A program made the position numbers and the translations under genes. A stretch of DNA of 45,289 bases from a virus (lineage: Duplodnaviria; Heunggongvirae; Uroviricota; Caudoviricetes). A model generated the notes under the pieces. It saw nothing but the letters and a program-made list of their open reading frames with translations. It had not been told where the DNA came from and did no database searches. The DNA lies in IMG/VR virus record IMGVR_UViG_2744054912_000003, positions 1 through 45,289 of that record, one strand, 5' to 3'. Each line of letters begins with the position of its first letter. The first letter of the stretch is position 1. Below are positions 1 to 41,596 of this stretch, piece after piece.

Positions 1-68
1 GTATCCAGTTCTTCGGGCTTACCAATATGGGCCAGAATTGCTGACCAGTTATCGTGAGAGTAATTCAT
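1..68 (-). CDS. insL: IS186 transposase, N-terminal 23 codons only (partial)
   Basis: ATG at 66-68 on the minus strand; translation MNYSHDNWSAILAHIGKPEELDT runs off the window start. Confidence 0.85.
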   Translation of the reverse strand, partial: MNYSHDNWSAILAHIGKPEELD

Positions 69-123
69 CGGCACGTTAAATCATATCAGGCGTAATACCA
101 CAACCCTTAAGTTAGCGCTTATG
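1..123 (-). mobile_element. IS186 left end (partial; element continues upstream of the window)
   Basis: Minus-strand ORF starting at 68 translates MNYSHDNWSAILAHIGKPEELDT, which I recognise as the IS186 transposase N-terminus. Bases 101-123 (reverse complement CATAAGCGCTAACTTAAGGGTTG) match the IS186 terminal inverted repeat as I recall it. Confidence 0.85.
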
Positions 124-145
124 GGATCTCTCCCCGCCAGGTCTC

Positions 146-301
146 TTACCTTTCAGATTCGTAGGCTGTGAAGACAGTGACCTCCGTCTGGCCGGTTCGG
201 ATTCGTACCTCGCAGAGGTCTTTCCTCGTTACCAGTGCCGTCACAATGACGGTTAAACAGATTACGATCAGAGCGATTAATATCGCTTTTTGCTGCTTCA
301 T
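146..301 (-). CDS. hok: Hok-family type I toxin (51 aa, single transmembrane helix)
   Basis: Manual translation of the minus strand gives MKQQKAILIALIVICLTVIVTALVTRKDLCEVRIRTGQTEVTVFTAYESER, close to E. coli HokD/HokC as remembered. This frame is not in the supplied ORF track (under 60 aa). Confidence 0.85.
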   Translation of the reverse strand: MKQQKAILIALIVICLTVIVTALVTRKDLCEVRIRTGQTEVTVFTAYESER

Positions 302-359
302 AGCCTGCTTCTCCTTGACCTTTTGGTCGGTAAGAGGCTAATCTACGTATGCTAAGCAT
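153..359 (-). CDS. mok: Mok-like overlapping leader frame (translationally coupled to hok)
   Basis: 68-aa ORF covering almost all of hok in another frame and extending 58 nt upstream, as in the plasmid R1 hok/mok arrangement. Confidence 0.55.
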   Translation of the reverse strand: MLSIRRLASYRPKGQGEAGYEAAKSDINRSDRNLFNRHCDGTGNEERPLRGTNPNRPDGGHCLHSLRI

Positions 360-410
360 AGATATTGCCTCAGATTAATGTTAAGCGTCTTGCAGGACGC
401 GTAATGTTAT
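345..410 (+). ncRNA. sok: Putative Sok-like antisense RNA (position by analogy only; boundaries not determined)
   Basis: In hok/sok loci the antisense RNA lies opposite the mok start and leader; no promoter or terminator was mapped here. Confidence 0.25.
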
Positions 411-635
411 CTGGGGCTTTCTTCTATCTGCTTTTCGGGTAATGCCTGAAGCAGATAGCCTCAAGCACCCGCAACGATTGTATCAATGTCTGGCTTTTTT
501 TCTATAGAAATCACCGGGAAGGGTGAATATCCACATCAGAAGAAATGTTGCAGCAAACATGATCCCTAATGGCCAGACCGCGCCAAAGAAAATCCATACT
601 GAAAACGCCAGGTGACTCCAGATTAGAGCAATCTA

Positions 636-1481
636 TCACCCTCTGAATCCCGCCGGTATACCCCATTGTTCGTTATCTTTATTTTTGGCTAAAACCGCAT
701 TAAGAGCTTCGTTTACCGTCATGCAATGCGGTAGGTTATCGAAGTTTGATATCCCGCCAATATCAGGCGAACGCTTGTTCTTCAGGTAAGCATATTTCCG
801 CGCAGCCGCCTCTACTTTCTGCTTGAACTCATGTTTTTGAGTGCGTTTTTTGGATAACCGCAGATTGTCAGCCTTTGCTTTTGCCTCAGCGATCCATGAA
901 GTCAATTTTTTGAGTCTGGTCGTTCCGGCACCGCCGGAAACTGATCTTTTTGTTTTTTTAACTTGTGACTTCTTATTCTTTATTGCCACGTCATCCTGAC
1001 AGGGGGAGGGGGTATCATTTTGATATGGGGGTGTGGTTAAAAAATCAAATAAAGCCAATGTCTTAGCGAGAACAGCTTTAACCTTGGTTGCGGCTGAAGA
1101 GATCTTTAATTTGCTTTCAGTCAGCGCGTTTTTAGCTTGTTGTGCGAAGGCCAAAAAGGATGGTGTAAACCGGTACAGGTTAGCGCGGCGTTCACGGTGA
1201 TCGCCGATAACAATCTCTACAGACAGGATTCCTTTGTTTACAGCTTCACGGAATGCACGAACGACGGTTGATTGGCTATAACCAGTTTCTGCCGCGATCA
1301 GGCGGTGAGGCTTGTGAATGAAGTATTCACTGGTTGTTGCCGCGAGATTTGCACATTGCGACAGGATATGCCCGGCGCTACGGGATAGACCGGAGTGTGT
1401 TACAAAGCAGGCCAATTCATAGCCAGAAAAAGTAAAATCGCTCATCGTTATACAGCTCAGGAAAGTGACTTTAGCCAGCAT
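636..1481 (-). CDS. repL: RepL-like lytic replication initiator (start may be the internal Met at 1445)
   Basis: 281-aa ORF immediately downstream of and co-directional with the kilA-like gene, as in the P1 kilA-repL operon; basic lysine/arginine-rich C-terminal half. Confidence 0.6.
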   Translation of the reverse strand: MLAKVTFLSCITMSDFTFSGYELACFVTHSGLSRSAGHILSQCANLAATTSEYFIHKPHRLIAAETGYSQSTVVRAFREAVNKGILSVEIVIGDHRERRANLYRFTPSFLAFAQQAKNALTESKLKISSAATKVKAVLAKTLALFDFLTTPPYQNDTPSPCQDDVAIKNKKSQVKKTKRSVSGGAGTTRLKKLTSWIAEAKAKADNLRLSKKRTQKHEFKQKVEAAARKYAYLKNKRSPDIGGISNFDNLPHCMTVNEALNAVLAKNKDNEQWGIPAGFRG

Positions 1482-1510
1482 TACAATGCTGGTGGTTCTT
1501 ACTACGTCTG

Positions 1511-2311
1511 TTAGCGCGTTGCCGCGACAGGTACCAGCACACCAGCATCAAGCAATCGCTTCATCAGCCACTGCTGACCTTTGCCGGTTATACGAGTCGT
1601 GAAAGAAATCCTGCTTCCATTGCTTGTATCGATCACGGTTTCTTTAAGGGTGAAATACCCACGGGATATGTATTCTTGTTTGGGGACGTTCCTGCGTTCA
1701 CCGGTTGCGATCAGAATTCCGTTATCACGCAACCAGGTGAAGAGATAGTTTTGGCCCAGGCCGAGCACTTTGGCATAGTTGCCGATTAGAACCCCGCTGG
1801 CGGTAGCAACGCGTTCGGCGAATTCGACTTTAGGTGCATCCATAAGCATTTTGTGCTCCAGCCGTTGCTTTTGCTCTGCCAGGTCGGCAGCCAAACGGAG
1901 AGCTTCAGGGAGACTCTGCGGAATAGCAGGTTGTAATCTTCCAGCTCGATAGTCGATAAATGTCTGGTTAACCTTCAGCCGAAACGCGGGAGAAATCCAG
2001 CCTGCGTACTCCACAGCGAGCAATTCATGGGCAAAAGTGCCGCCGCCACGGCCTTCGAACGAAACTATGCAATTCTGCATAGTTTCTTTTTCAAGCTCTT
2101 CGATGAGCTGTTTGGCTGACAGCGTTCTTAGCCATTGAGCTGGCGCTTTATGGGCACCGAGTCCGCTAGCTCTGTGTAGAGCATTAAGGTTGTAACGGCC
2201 AGCGCGGTCGGTCGTAATTTCAACACCACAAATAACAGGCAGAGTGGTTGAAGGATCGACATTTTGATGAAGGTTTGATATATTCATATCCGCATTGAAT
2301 GTTTGTTGCAT
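1511..2311 (-). CDS. kilA: KilA (KilA-N domain plus antirepressor-type C-terminal domain)
   Basis: 266 aa; N-terminal region looks like a KilA-N domain; C-terminal ~130 aa are paralogous to the Ant C-terminus in this window (QSLPEALRLAADLAEQK...PKVEFAERV versus QTLPDALRLAAELAEQK...PKVDFADRV). Confidence 0.7.
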   Translation of the reverse strand: MQQTFNADMNISNLHQNVDPSTTLPVICGVEITTDRAGRYNLNALHRASGLGAHKAPAQWLRTLSAKQLIEELEKETMQNCIVSFEGRGGGTFAHELLAVEYAGWISPAFRLKVNQTFIDYRAGRLQPAIPQSLPEALRLAADLAEQKQRLEHKMLMDAPKVEFAERVATASGVLIGNYAKVLGLGQNYLFTWLRDNGILIATGERRNVPKQEYISRGYFTLKETVIDTSNGSRISFTTRITGKGQQWLMKRLLDAGVLVPVAATR

Positions 2312-2380
2312 TTTTTCTCCAAATTTGCATCAACCTTCAATCACCAGCTCGAAATGGTGATTCTTTGCACTTAGAAAACG

Positions 2381-2397
2381 AAATTTATTAGAGCAAA
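2381..2397 (-). promoter_or_regulatory. C1 repressor operator-like site upstream of kilA (Op53-like)
   Basis: Reverse complement TTTGCTCTAATAAATTT matches the P1 C1 operator consensus ATTGCTCTAATAAATTT (as I recall it) at 16 of 17 positions, about 70 bp upstream of the kilA start. Confidence 0.6.
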
Positions 2398-2442
2398 TTT
2401 TTCTGACTCGATCCAGATCGGGTTGGTCGATCTGCTCAGAAA

Positions 2443-2470
2443 CCTGCCAGTTTACTGGCAGGTTTTTTCT
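2443..2470 (+). terminator. Rho-independent terminator hairpin (potentially bidirectional; also just downstream of the ant stop)
   Basis: CCTGCCAG-TTTA-CTGGCAGG stem-loop followed by TTTTTT on the plus strand, with an A-run on the other side. Confidence 0.55.
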
Positions 2471-2474
2471 TTTG

Positions 2475-3518
2475 TTAACCTATTGCTACTGGTTTTAACA
2501 AACCAGCATCAAGTAGCTTGCGAGTTAACCACTGCTGGCCTTTACCCGTTAATTGGGGCGTCAGCCGTATCTGGTAGCCATTTTCATCATCCAGCACCAC
2601 TTCTTTCACCGTGAAATACCCGGCGTTAATGTACTGCTGGCGCGGTACGTTTTTGCGCGCACCAAAAGCCATGAGAATGCCGTTCTGGCGCAACCATGAG
2701 AAAAGGGCGTTTTGCTTAAGTCCAACGACCTTTGCAAAGTTCCCGATCAGGATTCCATTAGCCGCTGATACCCGGTCGGCAAAATCGACTTTAGGGGCTG
2801 CGGCCACCAGCTGTTGTTCCAACTGCATTTTCTGTTCTGCCAACTCGGCAGCCAGGCGTAGAGCGTCTGGTAATGTTTGGGGGATCGATGGGGCAGGGGA
2901 GTTTGCCTGCTGCAATTCTTCCAGTTTGTCGATCAGCGAACGGCGGACTGCTTTTGACTCGCGCGCGGCGACTCGCAGGGCTTGTTTGTAGGTCATGGTT
3001 ATGACAACCATAGGCGTACCGCCACCTGGCGGCACGGTTGCACTTTTTGTGTAACCGTCCTCACCTTCTAATTCGTCGAGTATTTTTTTGATGAATTTGT
3101 TGTTCCGAACCTCTGGTTCCCCACATAACTTACGCGCTTCATTGACCATCTTTAACAGCGTCTGGCTGTCGATTGTGTCTCCAGTGTTGGAGATAACATT
3201 CACAGCTGGTGATGGCGTAGCTGAAGCAACAGATGCTGGTTTTTTAACATTCAAATTATTACTGGTCATTCTATGTGCCTCCTTTCTCATTTCTGCTGCC
3301 ACCGTTGCGTAACGTAGACGTCCTTGTTCAATCAAATAATCCCTGATCTCGGCTATCAGTAGCCTGTTGATCACAGCCTTATCTGTTCGGGTATAAAAAC
3401 GTCTGGTTATCATGAAATAGTTGGCAATTGCGCCGGGGATCTCCCGTGTCGGCATACAGGCAGTATGCAGGGCGATCGCTTCGGCTATGTCATTACGGGT
3501 GACGAGAGGTTTTTTCAT
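2475..3518 (-). CDS. ant1: Antirepressor Ant1 (Ant2 expected from an in-frame internal start)
   Basis: 347 aa; C-terminal antirepressor domain paralogous to KilA; lies downstream of a 73-aa ORF and an operator, as in the P1 immI region. Confidence 0.65.
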   Translation of the reverse strand: MKKPLVTRNDIAEAIALHTACMPTREIPGAIANYFMITRRFYTRTDKAVINRLLIAEIRDYLIEQGRLRYATVAAEMRKEAHRMTSNNLNVKKPASVASATPSPAVNVISNTGDTIDSQTLLKMVNEARKLCGEPEVRNNKFIKKILDELEGEDGYTKSATVPPGGGTPMVVITMTYKQALRVAARESKAVRRSLIDKLEELQQANSPAPSIPQTLPDALRLAAELAEQKMQLEQQLVAAAPKVDFADRVSAANGILIGNFAKVVGLKQNALFSWLRQNGILMAFGARKNVPRQQYINAGYFTVKEVVLDDENGYQIRLTPQLTGKGQQWLTRKLLDAGLLKPVAIG

Positions 3519-4871: not shown

Positions 4872-5411
4872 ATGAATAAAATTATTTTATTTCTAATCTT
4901 TTCTACGTTTAGTGTAGGCACTGCCTTGGCTAACTCGTTGCAAAGTCAAATTGCTGCTATTGCTCAAGCGGAAAATGAAGGGCGAGCTAAAGAGCAGCAA
5001 GCTGAGGATGCCAGAAAAGAACTTATTCGCCAACAAGCACAAGCTGAACGTATTAGAAGAGAAAAAGCAGCATCTGCCGCTGCTGCACGCGAAAAACAGC
5101 GTGTTGCTGCAGAAAATGAACGTAGAGCGAAACGAGAAGCCGAGCTAGCAAATGACAAGAAGCGAGATCAAGCTTATGAGGATGAGCTTCGCAAGCTGCA
5201 ACTCGAAAGCATGAAACTCGAACTGCAAGCAAAAGCGGCTCGTGTCCAGCGAGAAAACGATTTTATAGAGCAGGAGTTGAAGGAGAGAGCAGCTAAGACA
5301 GATGTAATTCAGTCTGAGGCTGATGCAAATAGAAATATTTCTACAGGAAGTAAAGATTTACTGCAAAGCGAAGGAAAAGCTAGAGAGAAGAAAGCTAGCA
5401 GTTGGTGGTAG
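4872..5411 (+). CDS. Secreted charged coiled-coil protein with TolA-like Ala/Glu/Lys/Arg repeats
   Basis: N-terminal signal peptide (FSVGTALA-NS) followed by a long stretch such as AQAERIRREKAASAAAAREKQRVAAENERRAKREAE. Confidence 0.7.
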   Translation: MNKIILFLIFSTFSVGTALANSLQSQIAAIAQAENEGRAKEQQAEDARKELIRQQAQAERIRREKAASAAAAREKQRVAAENERRAKREAELANDKKRDQAYEDELRKLQLESMKLELQAKAARVQRENDFIEQELKERAAKTDVIQSEADANRNISTGSKDLLQSEGKAREKKASSWW

Positions 5412-18564: not shown

Positions 18565-19181
18565 TGGCATTCAGAATGAGTGAACAATCACGTACAGTAA
18601 AAATTTATAACCTGCTGGCCGGAACTAATGAGTTTATTGGTGAAGATGACGCATATATTCCACCTCATACAGGGCTGCCAGCTAATTCTACAGATATCGC
18701 CCCACCGGAAATTCCTACTGGCTTTGTGGCAGTTTTCAACAGTGAAAATGAATCGTGGAATATTGTTGAAGACCATCGTGGTAAAACGGTCTATGAGGTG
18801 GCATCGGGGGACGCGTTGTTTATTTCTGAACCCGGACCGCTACCAGAGAATGTCACCTGGTTGTCGCCAGCAGGGGAGTATCAGAAGTGGGACGGCGTAT
18901 CCTGGGTGAAGGATGAGGAAGCAGAAAAACTGTTTCGGATACGGGAAGCGGAAGAGAAAAAGGCAAGGTTGATCCAGGAGGCAACAGATAACATCGCAAT
19001 TCTGCAGGACGCAGTTAATCTTGAAATAGCAACAAACGAGGAAAATTCACAACTGGACTCCTGGAGAAAATACAGAGTATTAGTGAGTCGAATTGATACC
19101 AGTACAGCTCCGGATATCGTATGGCCAGAGCTGATGAATCAGGGTTATGTGCGGGAGGACGAGCAGATAACTTCAGACTGA
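18564..19181 (+). CDS. Tail fibre assembly protein (Tfa; P1 gene U position)
   Basis: ATG overlaps the tail fibre stop (TAATG); N-terminus [58 protein letters not shown] is the conserved Tfa N-domain seen in Mu, lambdoid and e14 phages. Confidence 0.85.
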
Positions 19182-19708
19182 AATTTAGTGATGAATGTTG
19201 AATCATCAGGAATATCATGCAATACCAATGCATGAGCACCTATTGTGACATTGTTTCCTATACGCACTTTGCCACCAAGAATGGTGGCATTACAACCAAT
19301 GGTCACATTATCTCCTATAACAATATCCATGTCATTAAATTCCCCGCGAAGTCCAATAGTTACTCCGGGCTTAATTGAACAATTTTCACCGATTGTGACT
19401 TTGTGAGCGATAACAACGCCATTGAGATAAGATATGTCAAACCCTTTCCCTATATTTACCGTTAAGGGAACGGTTACATTGTATTTGTCAAGAATGAAGC
19501 GTTCTATTTTCCCTGCAACCTTTCGCCTGTATCCGCCTTTATCAAAAAGATATTTTGATATGCGCCACCAAAATAAATAACGAACTCTTCTATGTTTTAT
19601 TGCGCGAACAATTGCTTTTCGCCAAGAGAAAGGACGCTCGCTACCAATTACTTCATAGTGAATACAGTCTTTAAGTTCATTAATAGTCATATTTTTATTG
19701 TTCAGCAT
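19145..19708 (-). CDS. Hexapeptide-repeat (left-handed beta-helix) acyl/acetyltransferase
   Basis: Repeated [LIV]-G-x-x-x-x hexads ([16 protein letters not shown]...[34 protein letters not shown]); low GC compared with flanking genes; 3' end overlaps the convergent tfa by 37 bp. Confidence 0.8.
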
Positions 19709-19769
19709 AATATAATAATGTGACCAATTATTATAATAACTTTAATGGATTATTTCTACTGATTATCCA

Positions 19770-28377: not shown

Positions 28378-29490
28378 ATGAAAAAAATCACAGTGGCACT
28401 TTCTGCGGTTGCAGCATCAGTCCTGATGGCAATGTCTGCACAAGCGGCAGAAATCTATAACAAAGACGGTAACAAACTGGATCTGTACGGCAAAGTTAAT
28501 GCAGAGCATTACTTCTCTTCTTCAGCTAGTGATGACGGGGATAAAACTTATGCTCGTATGGGTTTCAAAGGTGAAACTCAGATTAATGACCAGTTAACCG
28601 GTTTTGGTCAGTGGGAGTACGAATTTAAAGGTAACCGTACTGAAACTGAAGGTTCTGATAAAGACAAAACTCGTCTTGCGTTTGCAGGGCTTCGCTTTGG
28701 CGATTATGGTTCGCTCGACTATGGTCGCAACTACGGTGTAGCGTATGATGTTGGCGCTTGGACTGACGTGCTGCCGGAGTTTGGTGGAGATACCTGGACT
28801 CAGACTGATGTATTTATGACCCAGCGTGCTACTGGCGTCGCGACCTATCGTAACAATGATTTCTTCGGCTTGGTTGATGGTCTGAACTTTGCTTTGCAGT
28901 ATCAGGGTAAAAATGATAGTGCTGCAAAAGTGAACAACTGGAAAGGCCGCGACGTAGTTGAATCTAATGGTGATGGCTTCGGTCTGTCAGCTACTTATGA
29001 TTATGAAGGATTTGGCATTGGCGCAACTTATGCAAAATCTGACCGTACTGATGGACAGGTATCCTATGCTAATGCAAGCTCTCTGAATGCTTCTGGTAAA
29101 ACAGCTGAAGTATGGGCTACTGGTCTGAAATATGACGCAAACAACATTTACCTGGCTGCAACTTATTCTGAAACTCAGAATATGACAGTCTTCGGTGATG
29201 ACTTTATCGCAAACAAAGCGAAAAACTTTGAAGCTGTTGCTCAATACCAGTTTGATTTCGGCCTGCGTCCGTCCATCGCTTACCTGCACTCTCGCGGTGA
29301 AAATATTGGTGCGTTCGGTAACCAGGATCTAGTTGAATACATCGACGTAGGCGCGACTTATTACTTCAACAAAAATATGTCCGCTTTCGTTGACTACAAG
29401 ATCAACCTGATTGATGAAAGTGAATTTACCAAAGCATCTGAGGTTGCAACCGACAACATCGTTGCTGTTGGTATGACCTACCAATTCTAA
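28378..29490 (+). CDS. OmpC/NmpC(OmpD)-family general porin
   Basis: 370 aa; signal peptide ending [19 protein letters not shown]; C-terminal ...VAVGMTYQF with terminal Phe; closely resembles E. coli NmpC as remembered. Confidence 0.9.
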
Positions 29491-29565
29491 TTTTGGTAGG
29501 TAAGAATATGCGGGAAGGGAGTGATGTCACTGCCCGCATATAGGTGGCACCCTCATGCCACCTTT

Positions 29566-31230: not shown

Positions 31231-33961
<2,731 letters not shown>

Positions 33962-34027
33962 TTAATTAGAATAATTCGCATCGTGTTTGCACGGAATTTA
34001 ACACTAGTCACTTGTTAAGGATTACCA

Positions 34028-37000
34028 ATGAACAAGCTATCTATGGGTGTGTTTCGCTGTTCAAGTGTCAGCGAAATATTGAAATACATTAGGGCAATAA
34101 CATCTCACCGAGCGCCGATTAAATACGGCGTGGAAAAGGTGGAAGGCAAAAGCTATGACCGACTGCGCCGGGAGGCGAATCAGAAGGCGATAGATTTGCT
34201 TAATTCGCTGGTGGACGGCGCGACACTGACAGATGAACAGCGCCAGATCCTGGCCGGGTACACTGGTGAAGGCGGCATTGGCGGGTCCGTCTCCGAATAT
34301 TACACACCAAAGCCTATCGCTGAAGGTGTCTGGGAGATCATGAAGCTCTACGGCGCGGACGTAGGTAACACTCTGGAACCATCGGCGGGAACCGGCGTTT
34401 TTAATGAGACAAAACCGGTTGGTACGGTGATGACCGCGACTGAGATCAGCAGTGTTTCCGGTCGTATAAACCAGTTGTTACACCCGGAAGACAGCGTACA
34501 GATTTCCCCGTTCGAACAGCTGGCTATAAACACGCCTAACGATTCATTCGACCATGTTGTGGGTAACGTTCCGTTCGGCGGTCGTGATAACACACGCAAC
34601 ATCGATAAGCCTTACGCAGAAGAAACGGACATGGGGTCTTACTTCATGCTCCGCATGCTGGACAAGATAAAACCTGGCGGATTCATGTGTGTGATTGTGC
34701 CGCCGTCCATTGTTTCAGGTTCAAACATGAAGCGGTTACGCCTGCGCTTATCCCGTAAAGCTGAATTTCTTGGCGCTCACCGCTTGCCTACCGGTACTTT
34801 TGACGCAAACGGGACCAGTACAGTCGTTGATGTGGTGCTGATGCGCAAACATCCGGCAGAGATGGCTGAGAAAATCCCCCTGGTGGATGAAAGCACTCTC
34901 GAATCGGCAAATGTGCTTTGGCCAACGTTTATTTCTGGCAAGTGGTTTGAAAAGGACGGCCGCCGGTTTGTTCATGGCACCCAGGAAAAGGGCTTCCAGG
35001 GGCGTATTGAGGTTCGTGCCGACGGTCAGATTGATAACCAGGCTCTTAAAGCGAAGCTGATTCATCGTTTCGAAAGCCGTATCGACTGGTCTTTGCTCGA
35101 TATGGCTGAACCGTCACCGACCGCAGACGTTGTTGGTGAAGGGGAAATGCGCCTGATTAATGGCGTATGGCAAAAATATGCTGGTGGTCGCTGGATTGAA
35201 GCTGATGCCGGGAAGGAACTTAAGATCGATGCTGCCAGTTATGGCGCGGATAGCTGGGAGGCTCTTCAGCGTAACCTGACTACAACAGAAGGCCGTCTCG
35301 GCATGACATTTACCCAGATGGCAAATGTCCGCGATAAGTACACCACATCAATCAGCGACGATATGGTGCAGCTGGTGGACTGGATTAACAGCCAGCCTGA
35401 AAAATACCGTGAACGCTTGTATCGCGGGGCGATGATTGGCCGGATGTTAATTGAATATCAGGACATGAAGGCCGCCGGGCATAGTGCTGAACAAATCGAA
35501 CAGCAGCGCCTTTCTCTGGTATCCCGTTTGCAGGCAGAGATTGACCGTTTTGGTAACCCCGGTCGCGGTCCGATAGCGAAATTGTCGGGGAGCGGTGCGC
35601 GCGCCTGGTTTGCTTTCCGTGGTGCGATTAAGCTGGATGGCACTATTTCTGACGAGCTGACAGGAAAGCTGGTTACGCATGATTCCAGCGCCAGTTATGA
35701 CTCCACCAGCTATCAGGACACCCTGCGTTATCTCTATAGCGATCTTACCCGCGATCCAATCCAGCTCGATGATTTCCGCTTTGCGTTTACCGGCGAACTG
35801 CCAGCCAGTGATGAAGAGTTGCTTAATTTATTGGCCAGCACCCCTGGTATTGCGGTTTCACCGTATGGCGGGATTGTTCCGTTCGCCCGCGCCACCAGCG
35901 GCGACATTAACGAGATAGTGGCTCCAAAACAGGAATTTCTTGCCACACTCCCCGACGGTCCAGTAAAGAACAACGTCCTTAATCAGCTGGCAGCGATCGA
36001 AGAGAAGCGCATCAAGACGTCAGCAGAGAATATTCGCTTTAAGCTCAATAGCCGTTGGTTCGACCGCTCCGTCATTCTGGAATTTTTGCAGGAAAACGGC
36101 TATCCGGATCTGCGCTATGTGCAGTCAGTGCAGCTGGAAGGCGACGAAATGGTTTCTGACACCTATCACGGTGGTGATGGTCTGTTCGTCGGGCACCGAT
36201 ACGGTGTCGTCCAGCGCAAGGATAAAGAAACAGGCGAGATCCGCTACGAGTGGGACCGTAAATCGGGTGAAAACGCGACCGGGTTCCCGGCACAGCTGGA
36301 AAAGTATCTCAATGGTGCGCGTATCGGTGGCAAAGATAGCGCGACGGCGAACGGCTACCGCGAGCAGATGGCACTGCTTGAGGACCAGTTCAATAAGTGG
36401 ATCAAGACGCACGATCGCTACGATGAGCTGGTTGCCAAATACAACGATGTGTTCAATAGCAATATCCCGTATGAACACTCTGGCGATCCGCTTGGGTTGA
36501 AGGGATTAAGCGGTAAGCGCCAGCCATTTGATTACCAGAATAGCGAGGTGCGCCGACTGTCCGAAGATGGGCGCGGCATCCTGGGCTTCGGCACCGGGCT
36601 GGGTAAAACCACGACCGCGCTGGCGCTTGAGGCGTTCAACTATGAGAACGGTCGCTCTACCCGTACTGCGTATGTAGTGCCTAAATCAGTGCTGGAAAAT
36701 TGGTATTACGAAGCAAAAGAATTCCTGAGTGAAGAGGCATTCAGTAACTACTTGTTCGTCGGTCTTGATGTGCTGATGGATGGCGATCAGATTCGCCAGG
36801 TGCCGGTGCTCAATGAGAACGGTAAACCTGTTCTTGGTACTGATGGCACTCCAGTTATGCGCGATGCTCTTAAGCTGGCAGATGAAGCCACTATCACGGC
36901 GCGGATGAACGCGATCCCGCACTCAAACTACCGTGCAGTCGTGTTTACCAAAGAACAATACGCCCGCATTCCGCTACGTGATGACACCGTAGATGAGCAT

Positions 37001-40000
37001 GCACAAGACATGCTTTATGACTTCGTTGCTGCCGGGCGTGTGGCCAGCGCAATGGACTCCGATTCCCATCGCAAAGAGGCGGCGCGTCGCCGGGTATTGT
37101 CGGAGTATTCAGATACCGGTACCGAAAAAGCAGAGAAGTATCCGTACTTTGAGGATATGGGCTTCGACAGCGTGATTGCTGACGAAGGCCACAACTACCG
37201 CAATAGCTATAAAAATGGTCGCGAAGCGTCACAGCTGGCCTATCTGCCCACCAGCGCGGTGGCGCAATCGGCGCGAGATATGGCAATCAAAAACGCGTAC
37301 CTGATGAAAAAGAATGGTGGGCGTGGACCGGTTCTCCTGACTGCAACGCCAGTCGTTAACACCCCGATCGATGCATACAACATGCTTTCTCATGTTCTGC
37401 CGAAGGAATACTGGCAGAAGATGGGGATCTACGGTCCTGATGACTTCGTTAAATTCTTCGGCAAGACCAGGCTGGAAACGGTACAGAAAATCAGCGGCGA
37501 AGTTGAAGAAAAAATGGCGCTGGTGGGTTTTGAAAACCTTGATGCGCTGCGCGGCATATTCCATCGCTGGACAACGCTTAAAACGGCGGAAGACGTTAAG
37601 GATACCGTGGAGATCCCGGAACTGGACGAACACCAGCAGGATGCACCACTTACTGAAGAACAACTGGCGGCGTATGAAGAATTGCGTCAGCAGGCGGAAG
37701 CGGCGGCCAAAGCCAACAATGGTGTAACGACCTCGGTCAATGAAGACGGCGTGATTGAGCACGAGAAAGCCCGTCCGATCTTCTCAATAATCAGGGATAT
37801 GGACCGCGTATGTACTGACATGGACCTGTACTATCGCCGGATCACCTATCGTTTCCTGCCGGAGTACGCCGATGCGGTGCAGCAGCTGGCAGACAGTTTG
37901 CCTAAACAAGCCACCAGCGAAGACGACGACAGTGATGATTCAATCACGCAGCAATCGCAATACTCCCTGATAGATAAGGGCGAGTTTATTCAGTTGCAGG
38001 TTCCGGAAGCGTTCGAGCAGGAAGTGAATAAGCGCCTGGCCAGGTTTGGCATTGACGAACAGACCGTAACTCACCCCGTTACGCCCAAATACGCGAAGCT
38101 GATTGCCACGCTGAAGGAGTTTTTCCCGGAAGGTAAGCAAATCATCTTCACCGATGAAAAAACGCAGCACCAGAAGCTCAAGCGCATTATCTGCAATGCT
38201 CTTAACCTTGAACCTTCAAAGGTGGGGATACTGAATGCTCAGACGGTTGCCGAGGCAGGTAAAACCGGTAAGAAACTGAAAGCGGTTAAACCGCCGAAAG
38301 AGTTACCGGATGAACCAACAGATGCACAGATAGCGAAATACAACGAGCAAATGGCTCTGTATGACGCCTATATCGCGCAGCAAAATGAAATGTCGTTGGG
38401 CGGTCTGGAAAAGATTGCAGCCGACTTCCAGGAGGGCCGGACTCCGATCATCATCTGCAACAAAAAGGCAGAGGTGGGTATCAACCTGCATCGAGGAACG
38501 ACTGACATCCATCATCTGACGTTGCCATGGACTCCAGCCAGTATTGCGCAACGAAACGGTCGCGGTGCCCGAGTTGGCTCCAACCGTGCAAGCGTTCGCG
38601 TTCACTACTACTGCGGCAAGGGTTCTTTCGATGAATACCGACTGAAGACGCTGAAGCGTAAAGCAGGCTGGATCTCCGATATCCTCCGTTCAGATAAGTC
38701 AGAAATGGAGAACGCCGACGCCAACGATATGATCGAAATGCAGATGTATACCGCTAAGGATGATGGCGAACGTCTGGCAATGATGCAGGTTCAAATGGAT
38801 AAGGCGAAAGCCGCGCAACGCGCTCGCCAGAAAGAACAGGCTACTATCGACCTTCAGAACTACATCAAGGCGCAGCACGCAGCTGGCGAGGATGTGGAGG
38901 TACTTACCGCTGAATTAGAGCGAAGCAAAGCGGAACTTGAAAAGACCACCGCCGAGGTAGCTAAATTCAAACAGGCGGTAATGGCCAAAGCAGCTGATAA
39001 CGCAGACTGGAAAGCCCGCTGGGGTAGCGTCCATCACACAGACCGTATGTTGTTAGCACAGTATCGCGCGTCGTTGAAAAGCGCCATTCAGCGCAAGGCT
39101 AATATCACTCAAGCCATCTCCCGCTATGAGAAATTATTGAACCGTACTCAGAAGGCCGCGACGGATATCAAACGCCTGCGCCCGCTGGTGGAGGATGCAA
39201 TAAATAAAGGCATTCTGGATGTTGATCCTGACCTGGTTAACCATGCGAGTGAGTTCCTTGTTATCGGCGATCGCTCATGGCGTGTAGGCCAATACTATGA
39301 TTGTGCTGGTGATATCGTTCGCATTAAGTCGCTGGACTTCGACAGCCAGCGCGCAGATGTGGAGATCATCTTTACCTTCAAAGGCACCAAATCGGGTAAC
39401 TGGGATGTGAAGACGCTGGATAAACAGGTGGATGTAACTCCCGATGAAGATGCTGTTATGCAGAAAATCAGTGGTGGCGTCTCCATCGCCGGGATTAACG
39501 ACATCATTTCCTGTGACGATTTCTACCGTTTCCAGCAGCGCGGCATGATCAAAATCACTGACTCATACGGCGTTCAGACAACAGAGTCAGGCTATAGCAT
39601 TGATTTTGTTGGTACCTATACGGACCCACTGAAGCATGCGGTTTACCCGGATCGCCGTGACGGCGCGCTGAAGTCGTCAATTGCAAAATGGGTGCTTGGT
39701 ATGATGTCGGAAGGGAATAACCGCCAGATCCGTTCGGCAGAAACATTCCTGGTTGAATTGTTTGGCTCCAATTATGGCGATGTAATCGCGTCATACGGAG
39801 ATACGCTATCCCCTGAAGCAATTCAGGAGAAAATAGCGGATGCGATCGCAAAAATGCCGGAGAAAACAAGCCAGGGGGCTACTCGTAACGGGGATTCTGA
39901 ACTTGAGGTCACCAATGCCATTTTCGGTACCCATGAGTTCCGGGCGTCAGATTATGAGATCACCACAGCACAGTTTGGCACCATTGGCATTTACAGCAAT

Positions 40001-40795
40001 AAAGCCGAGATCAAGCAGGCAATGGACGCAGCAAGCGCGCGCATCGCAGCAGAACGGGAAGCCAATCTGAATCATGCAGTCGCCGCACTGACTCAATCGT
40101 GGGTAACAGCAATCAGGGAGGCCGCCACCACAGGGAAAATCACACCTGCAATTGCGGATGTCGTAAACGACGGCTCTAAATTTATGGATGCCTATCAAAT
40201 GGATGCGGTGCAGTTGCCATCAGCCTATGGCCAACTCAGCTATCGCATGACCTACAACCTGGTATCAATGTTTTCCGACCTTGCCATCCTTGGGCTGGTG
40301 GATCTTAACGAGGTTACGCCGGAATTGCTCAGCATGCGCAAGAATCATGTGGAGATATTGCAGAGAATTAACACGGTTCTTGCCGGGCGCACCGATGAAG
40401 AGAAACAGGCCGACGCTGATCGGATAAACCTGGCCCTTGGCAACATCACGGAGGAAGAAATTGCCGCCAGAAACGAGAAACAAGAAGAGTTATCATCAAT
40501 ACAGGGTGATGCCACCAGCATAGTTCAGTCTCTTGGTCTGAATTATCGCGTATCCACCGCCGACCTGAAGATGATGTACGCACCAAAATTCGCCGCTGGC
40601 GAGGTATTTGGGCTTCAGGAAGCCTCAGGCATGAAAGGCGTTCTTTTCCGTGCGAAAGACGCAATCAAGGCGAAATTCGGCGCTCGCTGGCTGCCAGCGA
40701 AGGCGAAGAACAGCGATTTCCCGGGTAACTGGTGGATTATCGAGACAAAACACAACGTGGCGGACGTTCTGGCCGTCATCCAACAATACGCATAA
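34028..40795 (+). CDS. darB: DarB-like giant virion antirestriction protein: N6-adenine methyltransferase fused to SF2 helicase
   Basis: 2255 aa; methyltransferase motif VGNVPFGG; helicase Walker A GFGTGLGKTTTA, motif II DEGHNYRN, motif VI QRNGRGARVG; the length matches P1 DarB as I recall it. Confidence 0.85.
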   Translation: MNKLSMGVFRCSSVSEILKYIRAITSHRAPIKYGVEKVEGKSYDRLRREANQKAIDLLNSLVDGATLTDEQRQILAGYTGEGGIGGSVSEYYTPKPIAEGVWEIMKLYGADVGNTLEPSAGTGVFNETKPVGTVMTATEISSVSGRINQLLHPEDSVQISPFEQLAINTPNDSFDHVVGNVPFGGRDNTRNIDKPYAEETDMGSYFMLRMLDKIKPGGFMCVIVPPSIVSGSNMKRLRLRLSRKAEFLGAHRLPTGTFDANGTSTVVDVVLMRKHPAEMAEKIPLVDESTLESANVLWPTFISGKWFEKDGRRFVHGTQEKGFQGRIEVRADGQIDNQALKAKLIHRFESRIDWSLLDMAEPSPTADVVGEGEMRLINGVWQKYAGGRWIEADAGKELKIDAASYGADSWEALQRNLTTTEGRLGMTFTQMANVRDKYTTSISDDMVQLVDWINSQPEKYRERLYRGAMIGRMLIEYQDMKAAGHSAEQIEQQRLSLVSRLQAEIDRFGNPGRGPIAKLSGSGARAWFAFRGAIKLDGTISDELTGKLVTHDSSASYDSTSYQDTLRYLYSDLTRDPIQLDDFRFAFTGELPASDEELLNLLASTPGIAVSPYGGIVPFARATSGDINEIVAPKQEFLATLPDGPVKNNVLNQLAAIEEKRIKTSAENIRFKLNSRWFDRSVILEFLQENGYPDLRYVQSVQLEGDEMVSDTYHGGDGLFVGHRYGVVQRKDKETGEIRYEWDRKSGENATGFPAQLEKYLNGARIGGKDSATANGYREQMALLEDQFNKWIKTHDRYDELVAKYNDVFNSNIPYEHSGDPLGLKGLSGKRQPFDYQNSEVRRLSEDGRGILGFGTGLGKTTTALALEAFNYENGRSTRTAYVVPKSVLENWYYEAKEFLSEEAFSNYLFVGLDVLMDGDQIRQVPVLNENGKPVLGTDGTPVMRDALKLADEATITARMNAIPHSNYRAVVFTKEQYARIPLRDDTVDEHAQDMLYDFVAAGRVASAMDSDSHRKEAARRRVLSEYSDTGTEKAEKYPYFEDMGFDSVIADEGHNYRNSYKNGREASQLAYLPTSAVAQSARDMAIKNAYLMKKNGGRGPVLLTATPVVNTPIDAYNMLSHVLPKEYWQKMGIYGPDDFVKFFGKTRLETVQKISGEVEEKMALVGFENLDALRGIFHRWTTLKTAEDVKDTVEIPELDEHQQDAPLTEEQLAAYEELRQQAEAAAKANNGVTTSVNEDGVIEHEKARPIFSIIRDMDRVCTDMDLYYRRITYRFLPEYADAVQQLADSLPKQATSEDDDSDDSITQQSQYSLIDKGEFIQLQVPEAFEQEVNKRLARFGIDEQTVTHPVTPKYAKLIATLKEFFPEGKQIIFTDEKTQHQKLKRIICNALNLEPSKVGILNAQTVAEAGKTGKKLKAVKPPKELPDEPTDAQIAKYNEQMALYDAYIAQQNEMSLGGLEKIAADFQEGRTPIIICNKKAEVGINLHRGTTDIHHLTLPWTPASIAQRNGRGARVGSNRASVRVHYYCGKGSFDEYRLKTLKRKAGWISDILRSDKSEMENADANDMIEMQMYTAKDDGERLAMMQVQMDKAKAAQRARQKEQATIDLQNYIKAQHAAGEDVEVLTAELERSKAELEKTTAEVAKFKQAVMAKAADNADWKARWGSVHHTDRMLLAQYRASLKSAIQRKANITQAISRYEKLLNRTQKAATDIKRLRPLVEDAINKGILDVDPDLVNHASEFLVIGDRSWRVGQYYDCAGDIVRIKSLDFDSQRADVEIIFTFKGTKSGNWDVKTLDKQVDVTPDEDAVMQKISGGVSIAGINDIISCDDFYRFQQRGMIKITDSYGVQTTESGYSIDFVGTYTDPLKHAVYPDRRDGALKSSIAKWVLGMMSEGNNRQIRSAETFLVELFGSNYGDVIASYGDTLSPEAIQEKIADAIAKMPEKTSQGATRNGDSELEVTNAIFGTHEFRASDYEITTAQFGTIGIYSNKAEIKQAMDAASARIAAEREANLNHAVAALTQSWVTAIREAATTGKITPAIADVVNDGSKFMDAYQMDAVQLPSAYGQLSYRMTYNLVSMFSDLAILGLVDLNEVTPELLSMRKNHVEILQRINTVLAGRTDEEKQADADRINLALGNITEEEIAARNEKQEELSSIQGDATSIVQSLGLNYRVSTADLKMMYAPKFAAGEVFGLQEASGMKGVLFRAKDAIKAKFGARWLPAKAKNSDFPGNWWIIETKHNVADVLAVIQQYA

Positions 40796-40828
40796 CAGGA
40801 GCGCCCGGTTCGCCGGGCGTCGCATAAT

Positions 40829-41269
40829 ATGGCCACACTATCTGATACAATAAAACCGAATAAAACATATCTTGAGGCGGTACTCCGTACAGCGTTGTTA
40901 GGAAAGACAGAAGACGAATACGTTGATTTCTTCCTGTCAGGGCTACGCGGGCGATTACTGAAAAATCCCCGCCTGTACCGCAGCTATGGGCCATACTGGC
41001 CGGAAATTAAAAAATTATTACTGGAGCGCGGTTATGGTAATTTCGGTCGTCTCGTTGATCGTGACGTTCGCAAAATTTACCGTTATGACCGCCCGGCGCT
41101 AACACTCATAGCCGCGACGCTCTACAGCCAGGAGCGTTTTGATAATGGCCAGATATACTCAGCCTGGCATTTACTGCCAGTGCCTGAAGAGGTTGACGAC
41201 CAGGACTATGAGTTTGAGTCTTACGATTTGGAAGTTGAAGCCTTGGCACAGGCTGGAGAGAAAACTTGA
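40829..41269 (+). CDS. ulx: Ulx-like small protein downstream of darB
   Basis: 146 aa; position and size. Confidence 0.45.
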   Translation: MATLSDTIKPNKTYLEAVLRTALLGKTEDEYVDFFLSGLRGRLLKNPRLYRSYGPYWPEIKKLLLERGYGNFGRLVDRDVRKIYRYDRPALTLIAATLYSQERFDNGQIYSAWHLLPVPEEVDDQDYEFESYDLEVEALAQAGEKT

Positions 41270-41514
41270 AGAAGCGATACTACACAGTAAAGCATGGGAC
41301 GCTACGAGCATTGCAAGAGTTTGCTGATAAGCATAACGTTGAGGTGCGCAGGGAAGGGGGAAGTAAAGCTCTGCGCATGTACCGTCCTGACGGAAAATGG
41401 CGGACGGTCGTCGATTTCAAAACTAACAGTGTTCCCCAGGGCGTCCGCGACCGGGCATTCGAAGAATGGGAGCAGATCATCATAGATAACGCATTGCTTC
41501 TGAACGCTGATTAA
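41266..41514 (+). CDS. Small protein in the lxc position (82 aa)
   Basis: Start overlaps the ulx-like stop; position only. Confidence 0.4.
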   Translation: MKKRYYTVKHGTLRALQEFADKHNVEVRREGGSKALRMYRPDGKWRTVVDFKTNSVPQGVRDRAFEEWEQIIIDNALLLNAD

Positions 41515-41596
41515 TAATCATTTAAAGCCCATATGATATGGGCTTAAACAACAGGATCGATATACAGTGTTAGTTAAATATATAGGCGAGAGTTAT

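Follow-up and report, generated by a model that had tools for sequence, protein, structure and literature searches.

Insertion of IS186 into the 3' hairpin of a hok/mok/sok cassette on a P1-like phage-plasmid

The first 635 nucleotides of the window (the whole 45,289-nt stretch of viral DNA that was analysed) are the hok-proximal junction of a simple IS186 transposition into a hok/mok/sok type I toxin-antitoxin cassette. Taking the evidence together, we consider it likely that IS186 reached a hotspot by simple transposition, that the 3' control region of the cassette was cut off, and that addiction was probably neutralised. In kind, and nearly to the base, the event is that of hokC::IS186A and hokE::IS186B in E. 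coli K-12. The presence of IS186 behind K-12 hok loci has been known since the late 1990s, and Pedersen and Gerdes are said to have described, in 1999, IS elements close behind hokA, hokC and hokE. A literature search returned no paper on P1-like plasmids with IS186 at hok; in public records, hokD and an IS421/IS186 transposase are already annotated next to each other. What is new is the phage-plasmid setting, a figure for occupancy, and evidence that the site was hit independently more than once and in both orientations. Current understanding is not overturned, and the practical consequences are modest.

A complete IS186 with a target site duplication

The window matched plasmid pLR-13_1 of E. 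coli LR-13 (AP027478.1) at 100% identity. This plasmid is circular, 140,473 bp long, from human faeces, and IncY by PLSDB replicon typing; it is a P1-like phage-plasmid. The P1 gene order ant-kilA-repL was kept around the lytic replicon, and bplB followed by P1 tail genes lay beyond the far end of IS186 (AP027478.1 annotation), which together place the plasmid in the P1-like group. Within the window, the insertion is represented by the following features.

1-123, minus strand: left end of IS186, identical to nt 1-123 of K-12 IS186A/B
124-133, no strand: 10-bp target site duplication GGATCTCTCC, copy nearer to hok; the second copy is at L001 10774-10783
124-145, minus strand: 22 nt from the hok stop to the IS186 end (mRNA: GAGACCUGGCGGGGAGAGAUCC), which made up the 5' arm and the loop of the 3' hairpin before insertion, by comparison with the empty site

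The terminal inverted repeat of the element, CATAAGCGCTAACTTAAGGGTTG (23 bp), occupies window 123-101 on the minus strand. The transposase ATG is found at 68-66 on the same strand; the product begins MNYSHDNW and its coding sequence runs off the start of the window. In this orientation, transcription from the hok promoter enters the transposase gene sense-wise. The whole insertion was read from locus L001, the region of pLR-13_1 with 12 kb added on each side of the locus. It holds a full copy of IS186, an IS4-family element, at L001 10784-12123; the copy is 1,340 bp long and has the terminal repeats and the length (~1.34 kb) proper to this element. The leftward extension suggested in the earlier note thus recovered both the other end of IS186 and the 10-bp duplication.

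Seen from the window, which begins inside a truncated IS186, the adjacency of hok and repL could also have come from an IS186-mediated rearrangement, as the earlier note had proposed, or from an assembly join to a chromosomal hok locus, against which it had cautioned. The extended sequence makes such an origin extremely improbable. IS186 is complete and bounded by a perfect 10-bp direct duplication, P1 bplB lies to its left, and the sequence on either side runs colinear with that of P1-like phages and plasmids lacking the IS; relative to the IS-free P1-like phage MH422554 (locus L003), the only structural differences in L001 were IS186 itself and a 143-bp deletion. Uninterrupted bplB-hok sequence was present in 227 plasmid records, and the occurrence of the identical junction in dozens of independent records makes a chance junction unlikely. 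On the grounds of the IS ends, the duplication and the colinearity with MH422554, we rejected both a rearrangement and an assembly join, and we treat the junction as the product of simple transposition.

The pLR-13_1 copy differed from K-12 IS186A/B at only two positions. One extra C at IS position 781 leaves a longest transposase ORF of 259 aa against 370 aa. This copy therefore has no intact 370-aa DDE transposase, whereas the copies in K-12 and in relatives are intact, those of relatives matching DDE_Tnp_1. The extra C may be genuine, and then inactivating, or may stem from faulty assembly.

Parts of the hok/mok/sok cassette

The cassette occupies the sequence between IS186 and the repL operon.

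146-301, minus strand: hok toxin gene, 51 aa, HokD-like (ORF; Pfam HOK_GEF; annotated hokD in AP027478.1)
153-359, minus strand: mok, 68 aa, overlapping hok in another frame (ORF; start aligned to the K-12 mokC start)
315-344, plus strand: putative sok promoter, TTGACC (315-320), 18-nt spacer, TAATCT (339-344), read from the sequence and from where it lies with respect to the 5' end mapped for Sok
351-427, plus strand: predicted Sok antisense RNA, aligned to the annotated K-12 sokC (L004 1953-2011)
459-470, minus strand: start of the hok mRNA, including tac, GGGUGCUUGAGG (Rfam RF01794 model position 1 at 470)
477-504, minus strand: putative hok promoter, TAGAAA, 16-nt spacer, TG-TACAAT (promoter scan, 9/12 matches, extended -10 TG)
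511-526, minus strand: hairpin resembling a terminator, separating the repL operon from the hok promoter

The 51-aa hok ORF scored 76.3 bits against Pfam HOK_GEF (cutoff 22), which identifies it as a Hok/Gef protein; NCBIfam Hok models also matched, below their own cutoffs. A GAGG Shine-Dalgarno sequence lies 9 nt upstream of the mok start, as befits an overlapping mok gene. Rfam RF01794, which is named 'sok' and models the hok leader region, matched 296-470 on the minus strand with 114 bits against a gathering score of 59. The putative hok promoter is placed 6-7 nt upstream of the mRNA 5' end. Opposite the mok start, the predicted Sok comprises a long terminator-type hairpin followed by UUUCUUCU (the U-run), so that the locus has the sequence hallmarks of a cis-encoded Sok with its own promoter and terminator. 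A simple consensus promoter scan left the sok promoter uncalled, and it was placed by homology instead. Compared with the IS-free relative MH422554, the Sok sequence had one SNP only.

The earlier note had described hok, an overlapping mok and an IS186 end 22 bp past the hok stop, and all of these are present, the last distance being exactly 22 nt. It had also asked after the antisense partner, and the sok sequence is intact with its promoter and terminator hairpin in place. Read from the sequence, IS186 has left hok, mok, sok and both promoters untouched. The word 'intact' in that note holds for these parts, but not for the regulatory unit: the 3' hairpin is split, and the fold-back element (fbi) and the terminator are detached.

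The hok region of the module was 88-92% identical to the hok loci of Rac and other lambdoid (pro)phages. Searches of Pfam and NCBIfam gave no family for Mok, for RepL, or for a 51-aa ORF at 511-666 on the minus strand, which is a by-product of the 143-bp deletion. Further Rfam matches in window 1-3000 (ceN48, ctRNA_p42d and a plus-strand 'sok') fell far below their gathering scores and were taken as chance.

The 3' hairpin of the hok mRNA is an IS186 target

In IS-free relatives the empty site reads GGCGGGGATCTCTCCCC(G/A)CC. It contains the hairpin GGGGATCTCTCCCC, that is GGCGGGG-ATCTCT-CCCCGCC, which begins 7 nt past the hok stop. The target consensus of IS186 is GGGG(N6/N7)CCCC (Lee et al. 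2016, PMC5009759); K-12 has only 54 such sites, IS186 inserts in either orientation, and up to 16 independent hits were recorded at a single site in mutation-accumulation lines (PMC5009759). The hok 3' hairpin is a perfect GGGG(N6)CCCC match and bears the direct duplication, and no further site of the GGGG(N6/N7)CCCC type was found elsewhere in the 45-kb window, in L001 or in L002, the corresponding locus of NZ_CP062902.

IS186 landed in the loop of this hairpin, and strand breaks staggered so as to fall two bases within the G run and the C run gave both the 10-bp duplication and the constant 22-nt spacing. As the duplication consists of GG, N6 and CC, the distance to the hok stop is fixed at 22 nt. 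Many hok genes are followed by this conserved, palindromic motif, and IS186 therefore strikes the same nucleotide again and again in either orientation, both on these plasmids and at the chromosomal hok loci described below. The known IS186 hotspots in the lon promoter, fimA and menC share the motif, the use of both orientations and the repeated independent hits at one nucleotide (PMC5009759). Those sites lie in a promoter or within coding genes, whereas the motif behind hok belongs to a toxin mRNA, of which it is a conserved structural element.

The earlier note had guessed at a hotspot in the fold-back region of hok mRNA, citing K-12 hokC and hokE. Both K-12 genes do carry IS186, 22 and 21 nt past the stop, with duplications at the equivalent position of the hairpin. 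The hairpin is thus the hotspot, but the fold-back element itself was not struck, as IS186 sits between the hok stop and fbi.

Recurrent insertion on P1-like plasmids

The hok module was present in about 420 PLSDB records and six phage records. The PLSDB records were divided by the state of the site.

Empty site: 227 records
IS186 in the window orientation (co-directional with hok): 34 records, 2 of them hokC-like
IS186 in the opposite orientation: 161 records

IS186 therefore occupied the same nucleotide in about 195 of about 420 records (~46%), counts that take in clonal and redundant records and are not counts of insertion events. NZ_CP062902 carries IS186 at the nucleotide used in the window, inverted. 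Among plasmids with the window orientation, three that were compared had 25-28 SNPs between their flanks over about 1.9 kb, among them SNPs 21 bp left of the duplication and 3 bp right of it; CP099239, which belongs to these three, had flanks identical to those of the empty-site phage MH422554. The different flanking haplotypes and the use of both orientations indicate at least three independent IS186 insertions at the same position in this plasmid family.

All six P1-like records with the hok module in the phage collection (two of them duplicates) had an empty site, in numbers too small to interpret. In opposite-orientation plasmids such as NZ_CP062902 (L002 3675-3684 versus 5024-5033), the two copies of the duplication were one base apart, GGATCTCTCC versus GGATCACTCC, the second being the duplication of K-12 hokC. 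The mismatch is probably a point mutation; a short-patch exchange with chromosomal hokC::IS186 is less likely, given that plasmid sequence resumes within 5 bp in the flank.

Equivalent insertions on chromosomes

Insertions of IS186 at the equivalent position were found behind several chromosomal hok genes.

K-12 hokC: IS186 22 nt past the stop, duplication GGATCACTCC, convergent with hok
K-12 hokE: IS186 21 nt past the stop, duplication GGAGTAATCC, co-directional
hok between cysH and cas3: IS186 21 nt past the stop, duplication GGTTTTACCC, both orientations in different strains
hokD beside relBE: IS186 23 nt past the stop, duplication GGATTTCTCCC, convergent with hok

The closest counterpart is K-12 hokC (gef)/sokC with IS186A. 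There, as in pLR-13_1, the element lies in the loop of a GGGG-ATCACT-CCCC hairpin with a 10-bp duplication, hok, mok and sok are kept, fbi is displaced (PMC3562002), and the Hok proteins are ~80% identical. The two differ in that the K-12 locus is chromosomal (dnaJ-nhaA) with IS186A convergent with hokC, whereas IS186 in the window is co-directional; mok is in the hok frame in K-12 but in another frame in pLR-13_1; and the pLR-13_1 Sok has 18 nt extra at the hairpin tip compared with K-12 sokC. In K-12 hokE/sokE, IS186B is co-directional, as in the window, and its duplication likewise falls inside GGGG-N6-CCCC, but hokE is chromosomal and belongs to another Hok subfamily.

Queries with the junction sequences in complete E. 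coli genomes gave the window orientation in 940 of 5,426 and the opposite orientation in 828 of 5,426. In one locus (L008; NZ_CP026580.3 3339431-3343186), IS186 had hokE-locus sequence (by entD) on one side and hokC on the other, and the duplications on the two sides did not match. This arrangement bears the mark of recombination between IS186 copies parked at two hok loci, probably as a large chromosomal inversion. Many of the 940 window-orientation genomes are annotated mokC and may share recombination of this type. As the hokE/hokC-flanked IS186 of NZ_CP026580.3 illustrates, IS186 copies at hok loci are portable homology that can drive recombination.

Target preference or selection

The high occupancy of the site might reflect selection as well as target choice, either through relief from a costly toxin module or through IS186 exploiting co-directional read-through from hok. 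We regard a contribution of this kind as distinctly unlikely. Its appeal lies in the ~46% of hok-bearing P1-like plasmid records that carry IS186, in the presence of an IS186-hok junction in roughly a third of complete E. coli genomes, and in the window's hok promoter reading sense-wise into the transposase; yet the counts are inflated by clonal records, both orientations occur, and the transposase in the window is frameshifted. Moreover, in near-neutral mutation accumulation, single GGGG(N6)CCCC sites received up to 16 independent hits (PMC5009759), and so many neutral hits per site mean that target preference alone can explain the recurrence. The broader proposition, that the IS186-hok association is itself selected, with IS186 disarming hok modules across phage-plasmids, prophages and chromosomes as a widespread 'anti-addiction' agent, or with hok transcription feeding the transposase, seems to us more doubtful still. 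If true, a selected association would explain both the conserved rare motif and the many occupied sites.

Predicted effect of IS186 on hok mRNA folding

The hok/sok (parB) locus of plasmid R1 has the same architecture as the cassette described here, with hok, an overlapping mok, antisense Sok, tac-fbi pairing and a hairpin past the stop (PMC9841398), the tac-fbi pairing on the pLR-13_1 side being that of the rebuilt intact mRNA only. In such loci, full-length hok mRNA is held in a stable, inert state by the tac/fbi architecture and becomes active through slow trimming of its 3' end, and killing after plasmid loss depends, in the R1 model, on this stable closed mRNA (PMC9841398). We rebuilt the uninterrupted mRNA (431 nt) from the plasmid's own flanks and folded it in silico. 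In the predicted structure, nt 1-12 (GGGUGCUUGAGG, tac) paired with nt 373-385 (CCUCAAUGCACCC, fbi) at a probability of about 1.0; the hok stop was at nt 325, the IS186-target hairpin at nt 332-353, and the fold-back element after it. The R1 3' hairpin is GGGC...GCCC and offers no IS186 target; R1 is a conjugative plasmid, and its hok/sok has been experimentally proven to stabilise it.

In pLR-13_1 the 3' hairpin is split and fbi and the terminator now lie 1.35 kb downstream, beyond IS186, and the pairing of the 5' and 3' ends predicted for the rebuilt empty-site mRNA would be lost. IS186 downstream of hok contains no copy of fbi, and within the 1.87-kb read-through the original fbi was found beyond the IS only. 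A substitute fbi inside IS186 was considered and rejected, the sequence being found solely at the original fbi beyond the element. When transcripts cut at nt 347-550 were folded, the 5' end was predicted to form the same local hairpin as in the 3'-trimmed RNA, and local 5' refolding was the predicted outcome for 3'-trimmed and most IS-interrupted transcripts alike. At a single length, 650 nt, the 5' end was instead predicted to pair with IS sequence, so that a surrogate closing helix between the hok mRNA 5' end and the IS keeps a small probability.

These predictions suggest the following course of events. With IS186 in place, the 5' end (tac) of hok mRNA would no longer close onto fbi, leaving no stable, inert full-length reservoir, and the interrupted mRNA would from the beginning adopt the Sok-accessible fold of the 3'-processed form. 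Sok would then keep hok silent in plasmid-bearing cells, and little stable mRNA would be left to kill plasmid-free cells. Being open to Sok from the start, the mRNA would build no stable reservoir, and the killing of segregants would be lost or much weakened. From the folding predictions and the R1 model, we infer that post-segregational killing by the pLR-13_1 cassette is probably lost or much weakened, and that the cassette is most likely a neutralised addiction module.

It is also conceivable, though unlikely, that addiction or phage exclusion by the cassette persists despite IS186, with transcripts that end inside IS186, are trimmed back and stay under Sok control. In favour of this, none of hok, mok, sok or the two promoters is damaged, and one folded length paired its 5' end with IS sequence. 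In K-12, where fbi is described as disrupted in gef/hokC with IS186, gef::IS186 is still transcribed, giving an ~644-nt mRNA that ends inside the IS and is still regulated by the antisense RNA sof (PMC3562002); the IS-interrupted locus is therefore not silent. Weighing against continued function, such a transcript has neither fbi nor the protective 3' hairpin, most interrupted lengths were predicted to fold like the processed, Sok-accessible form, and killing in the R1 model needs the stable closed mRNA (PMC9841398). Neutralisation of the addiction module remains the reading we prefer. IS-free chromosomal hok loci, for their part, failed to stabilise test plasmids (bioRxiv 10.1101/2025.08.07.668861), and the uninterrupted cassette may likewise not stabilise P1-like plasmids.

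Where hok is counted as a stability or defence module on P1-like phage-plasmids, a check for IS186 cutting the 3' control region is advisable. Many P1-like phage-plasmids carry resistance genes, and IS186 lies at hok in ~46% of the public records, clonal and redundant ones included.

The hok module replaces pmgF, rlfB and rlfA of P1

The cassette adjoins the lytic replication gene of the phage-plasmid.

619-635, minus strand: C1-operator-like sequence ATTGCTCTAATCTGGAG at the position of P1 Orlf, which is ATTGCTCTAATTATAAC; the first 11 nt are identical
636-1481, minus strand: repL, P1 lytic replication gene, 281 aa, 98% DNA identity to P1 repL
483-600, minus strand: 3' remnant of an 81-aa small hydrophobic ORF, aligned with MH422554 and NZ_CP062902, in which the ORF is whole

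P1 has the order bplB-pmgF-rlfB-rlfA-Orlf-repL at this position; the earlier note had placed rlfA/rlfB beside repL, and the comparison bears this out and adds pmgF. In the hok lineage, P1 homology ends 42 bp past bplB and resumes at window 622, inside the Orlf C1 operator. A 693-bp module, made up of hok/mok/sok and the 81-aa hydrophobic ORF, replaces 1,826 bp of P1 (pmgF, rlfB and rlfA), whereas the flanking bplB, repL and start of the Orlf C1 operator are 96-98% identical between P1 and the hok lineage. The hok cassette between bplB and repL is a trait of a large sub-lineage of P1-like (IncY) phage-plasmids.

Where it is whole, in relatives, the 81-aa ORF has the Orlf-like C1 operator on one side and the hok promoter on the other. 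As the breakpoint of the swap falls inside the C1-operator-like sequence, the small ORF may be under C1 control, like rlfA in P1. Searches of Pfam and NCBIfam with the ORF of relatives gave no family above threshold and a sub-threshold B12D match only. In the window, the 143-bp deletion (window 597-601; L003 5478-5620), with ACT microhomology at 598-600, removes the start and first half of the ORF. The deletion is common to some, though not all, plasmids with the same IS orientation.

Other genes in the window

The P1-like backbone also carries a multidrug-resistance island at about 33453-45289 of the window (AP027478.1 annotation).

33453-34982: further transposase
35033-35737: IS6/IS26-type transposase
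35977-36618: qnrB19
39582-41075: IS91-family transposase
42208-43419: floR
44022-44792: tet(A) fragment

Elsewhere in the backbone, an annotated phosphoporin PhoE (an OmpC/PhoE-type porin; window 28394-29506) adjoins ssb and a lysozyme gene, and a wcaB-like acetyltransferase gene (window 19147-19710) adjoins tail-fibre and tail-fibre-assembly genes.
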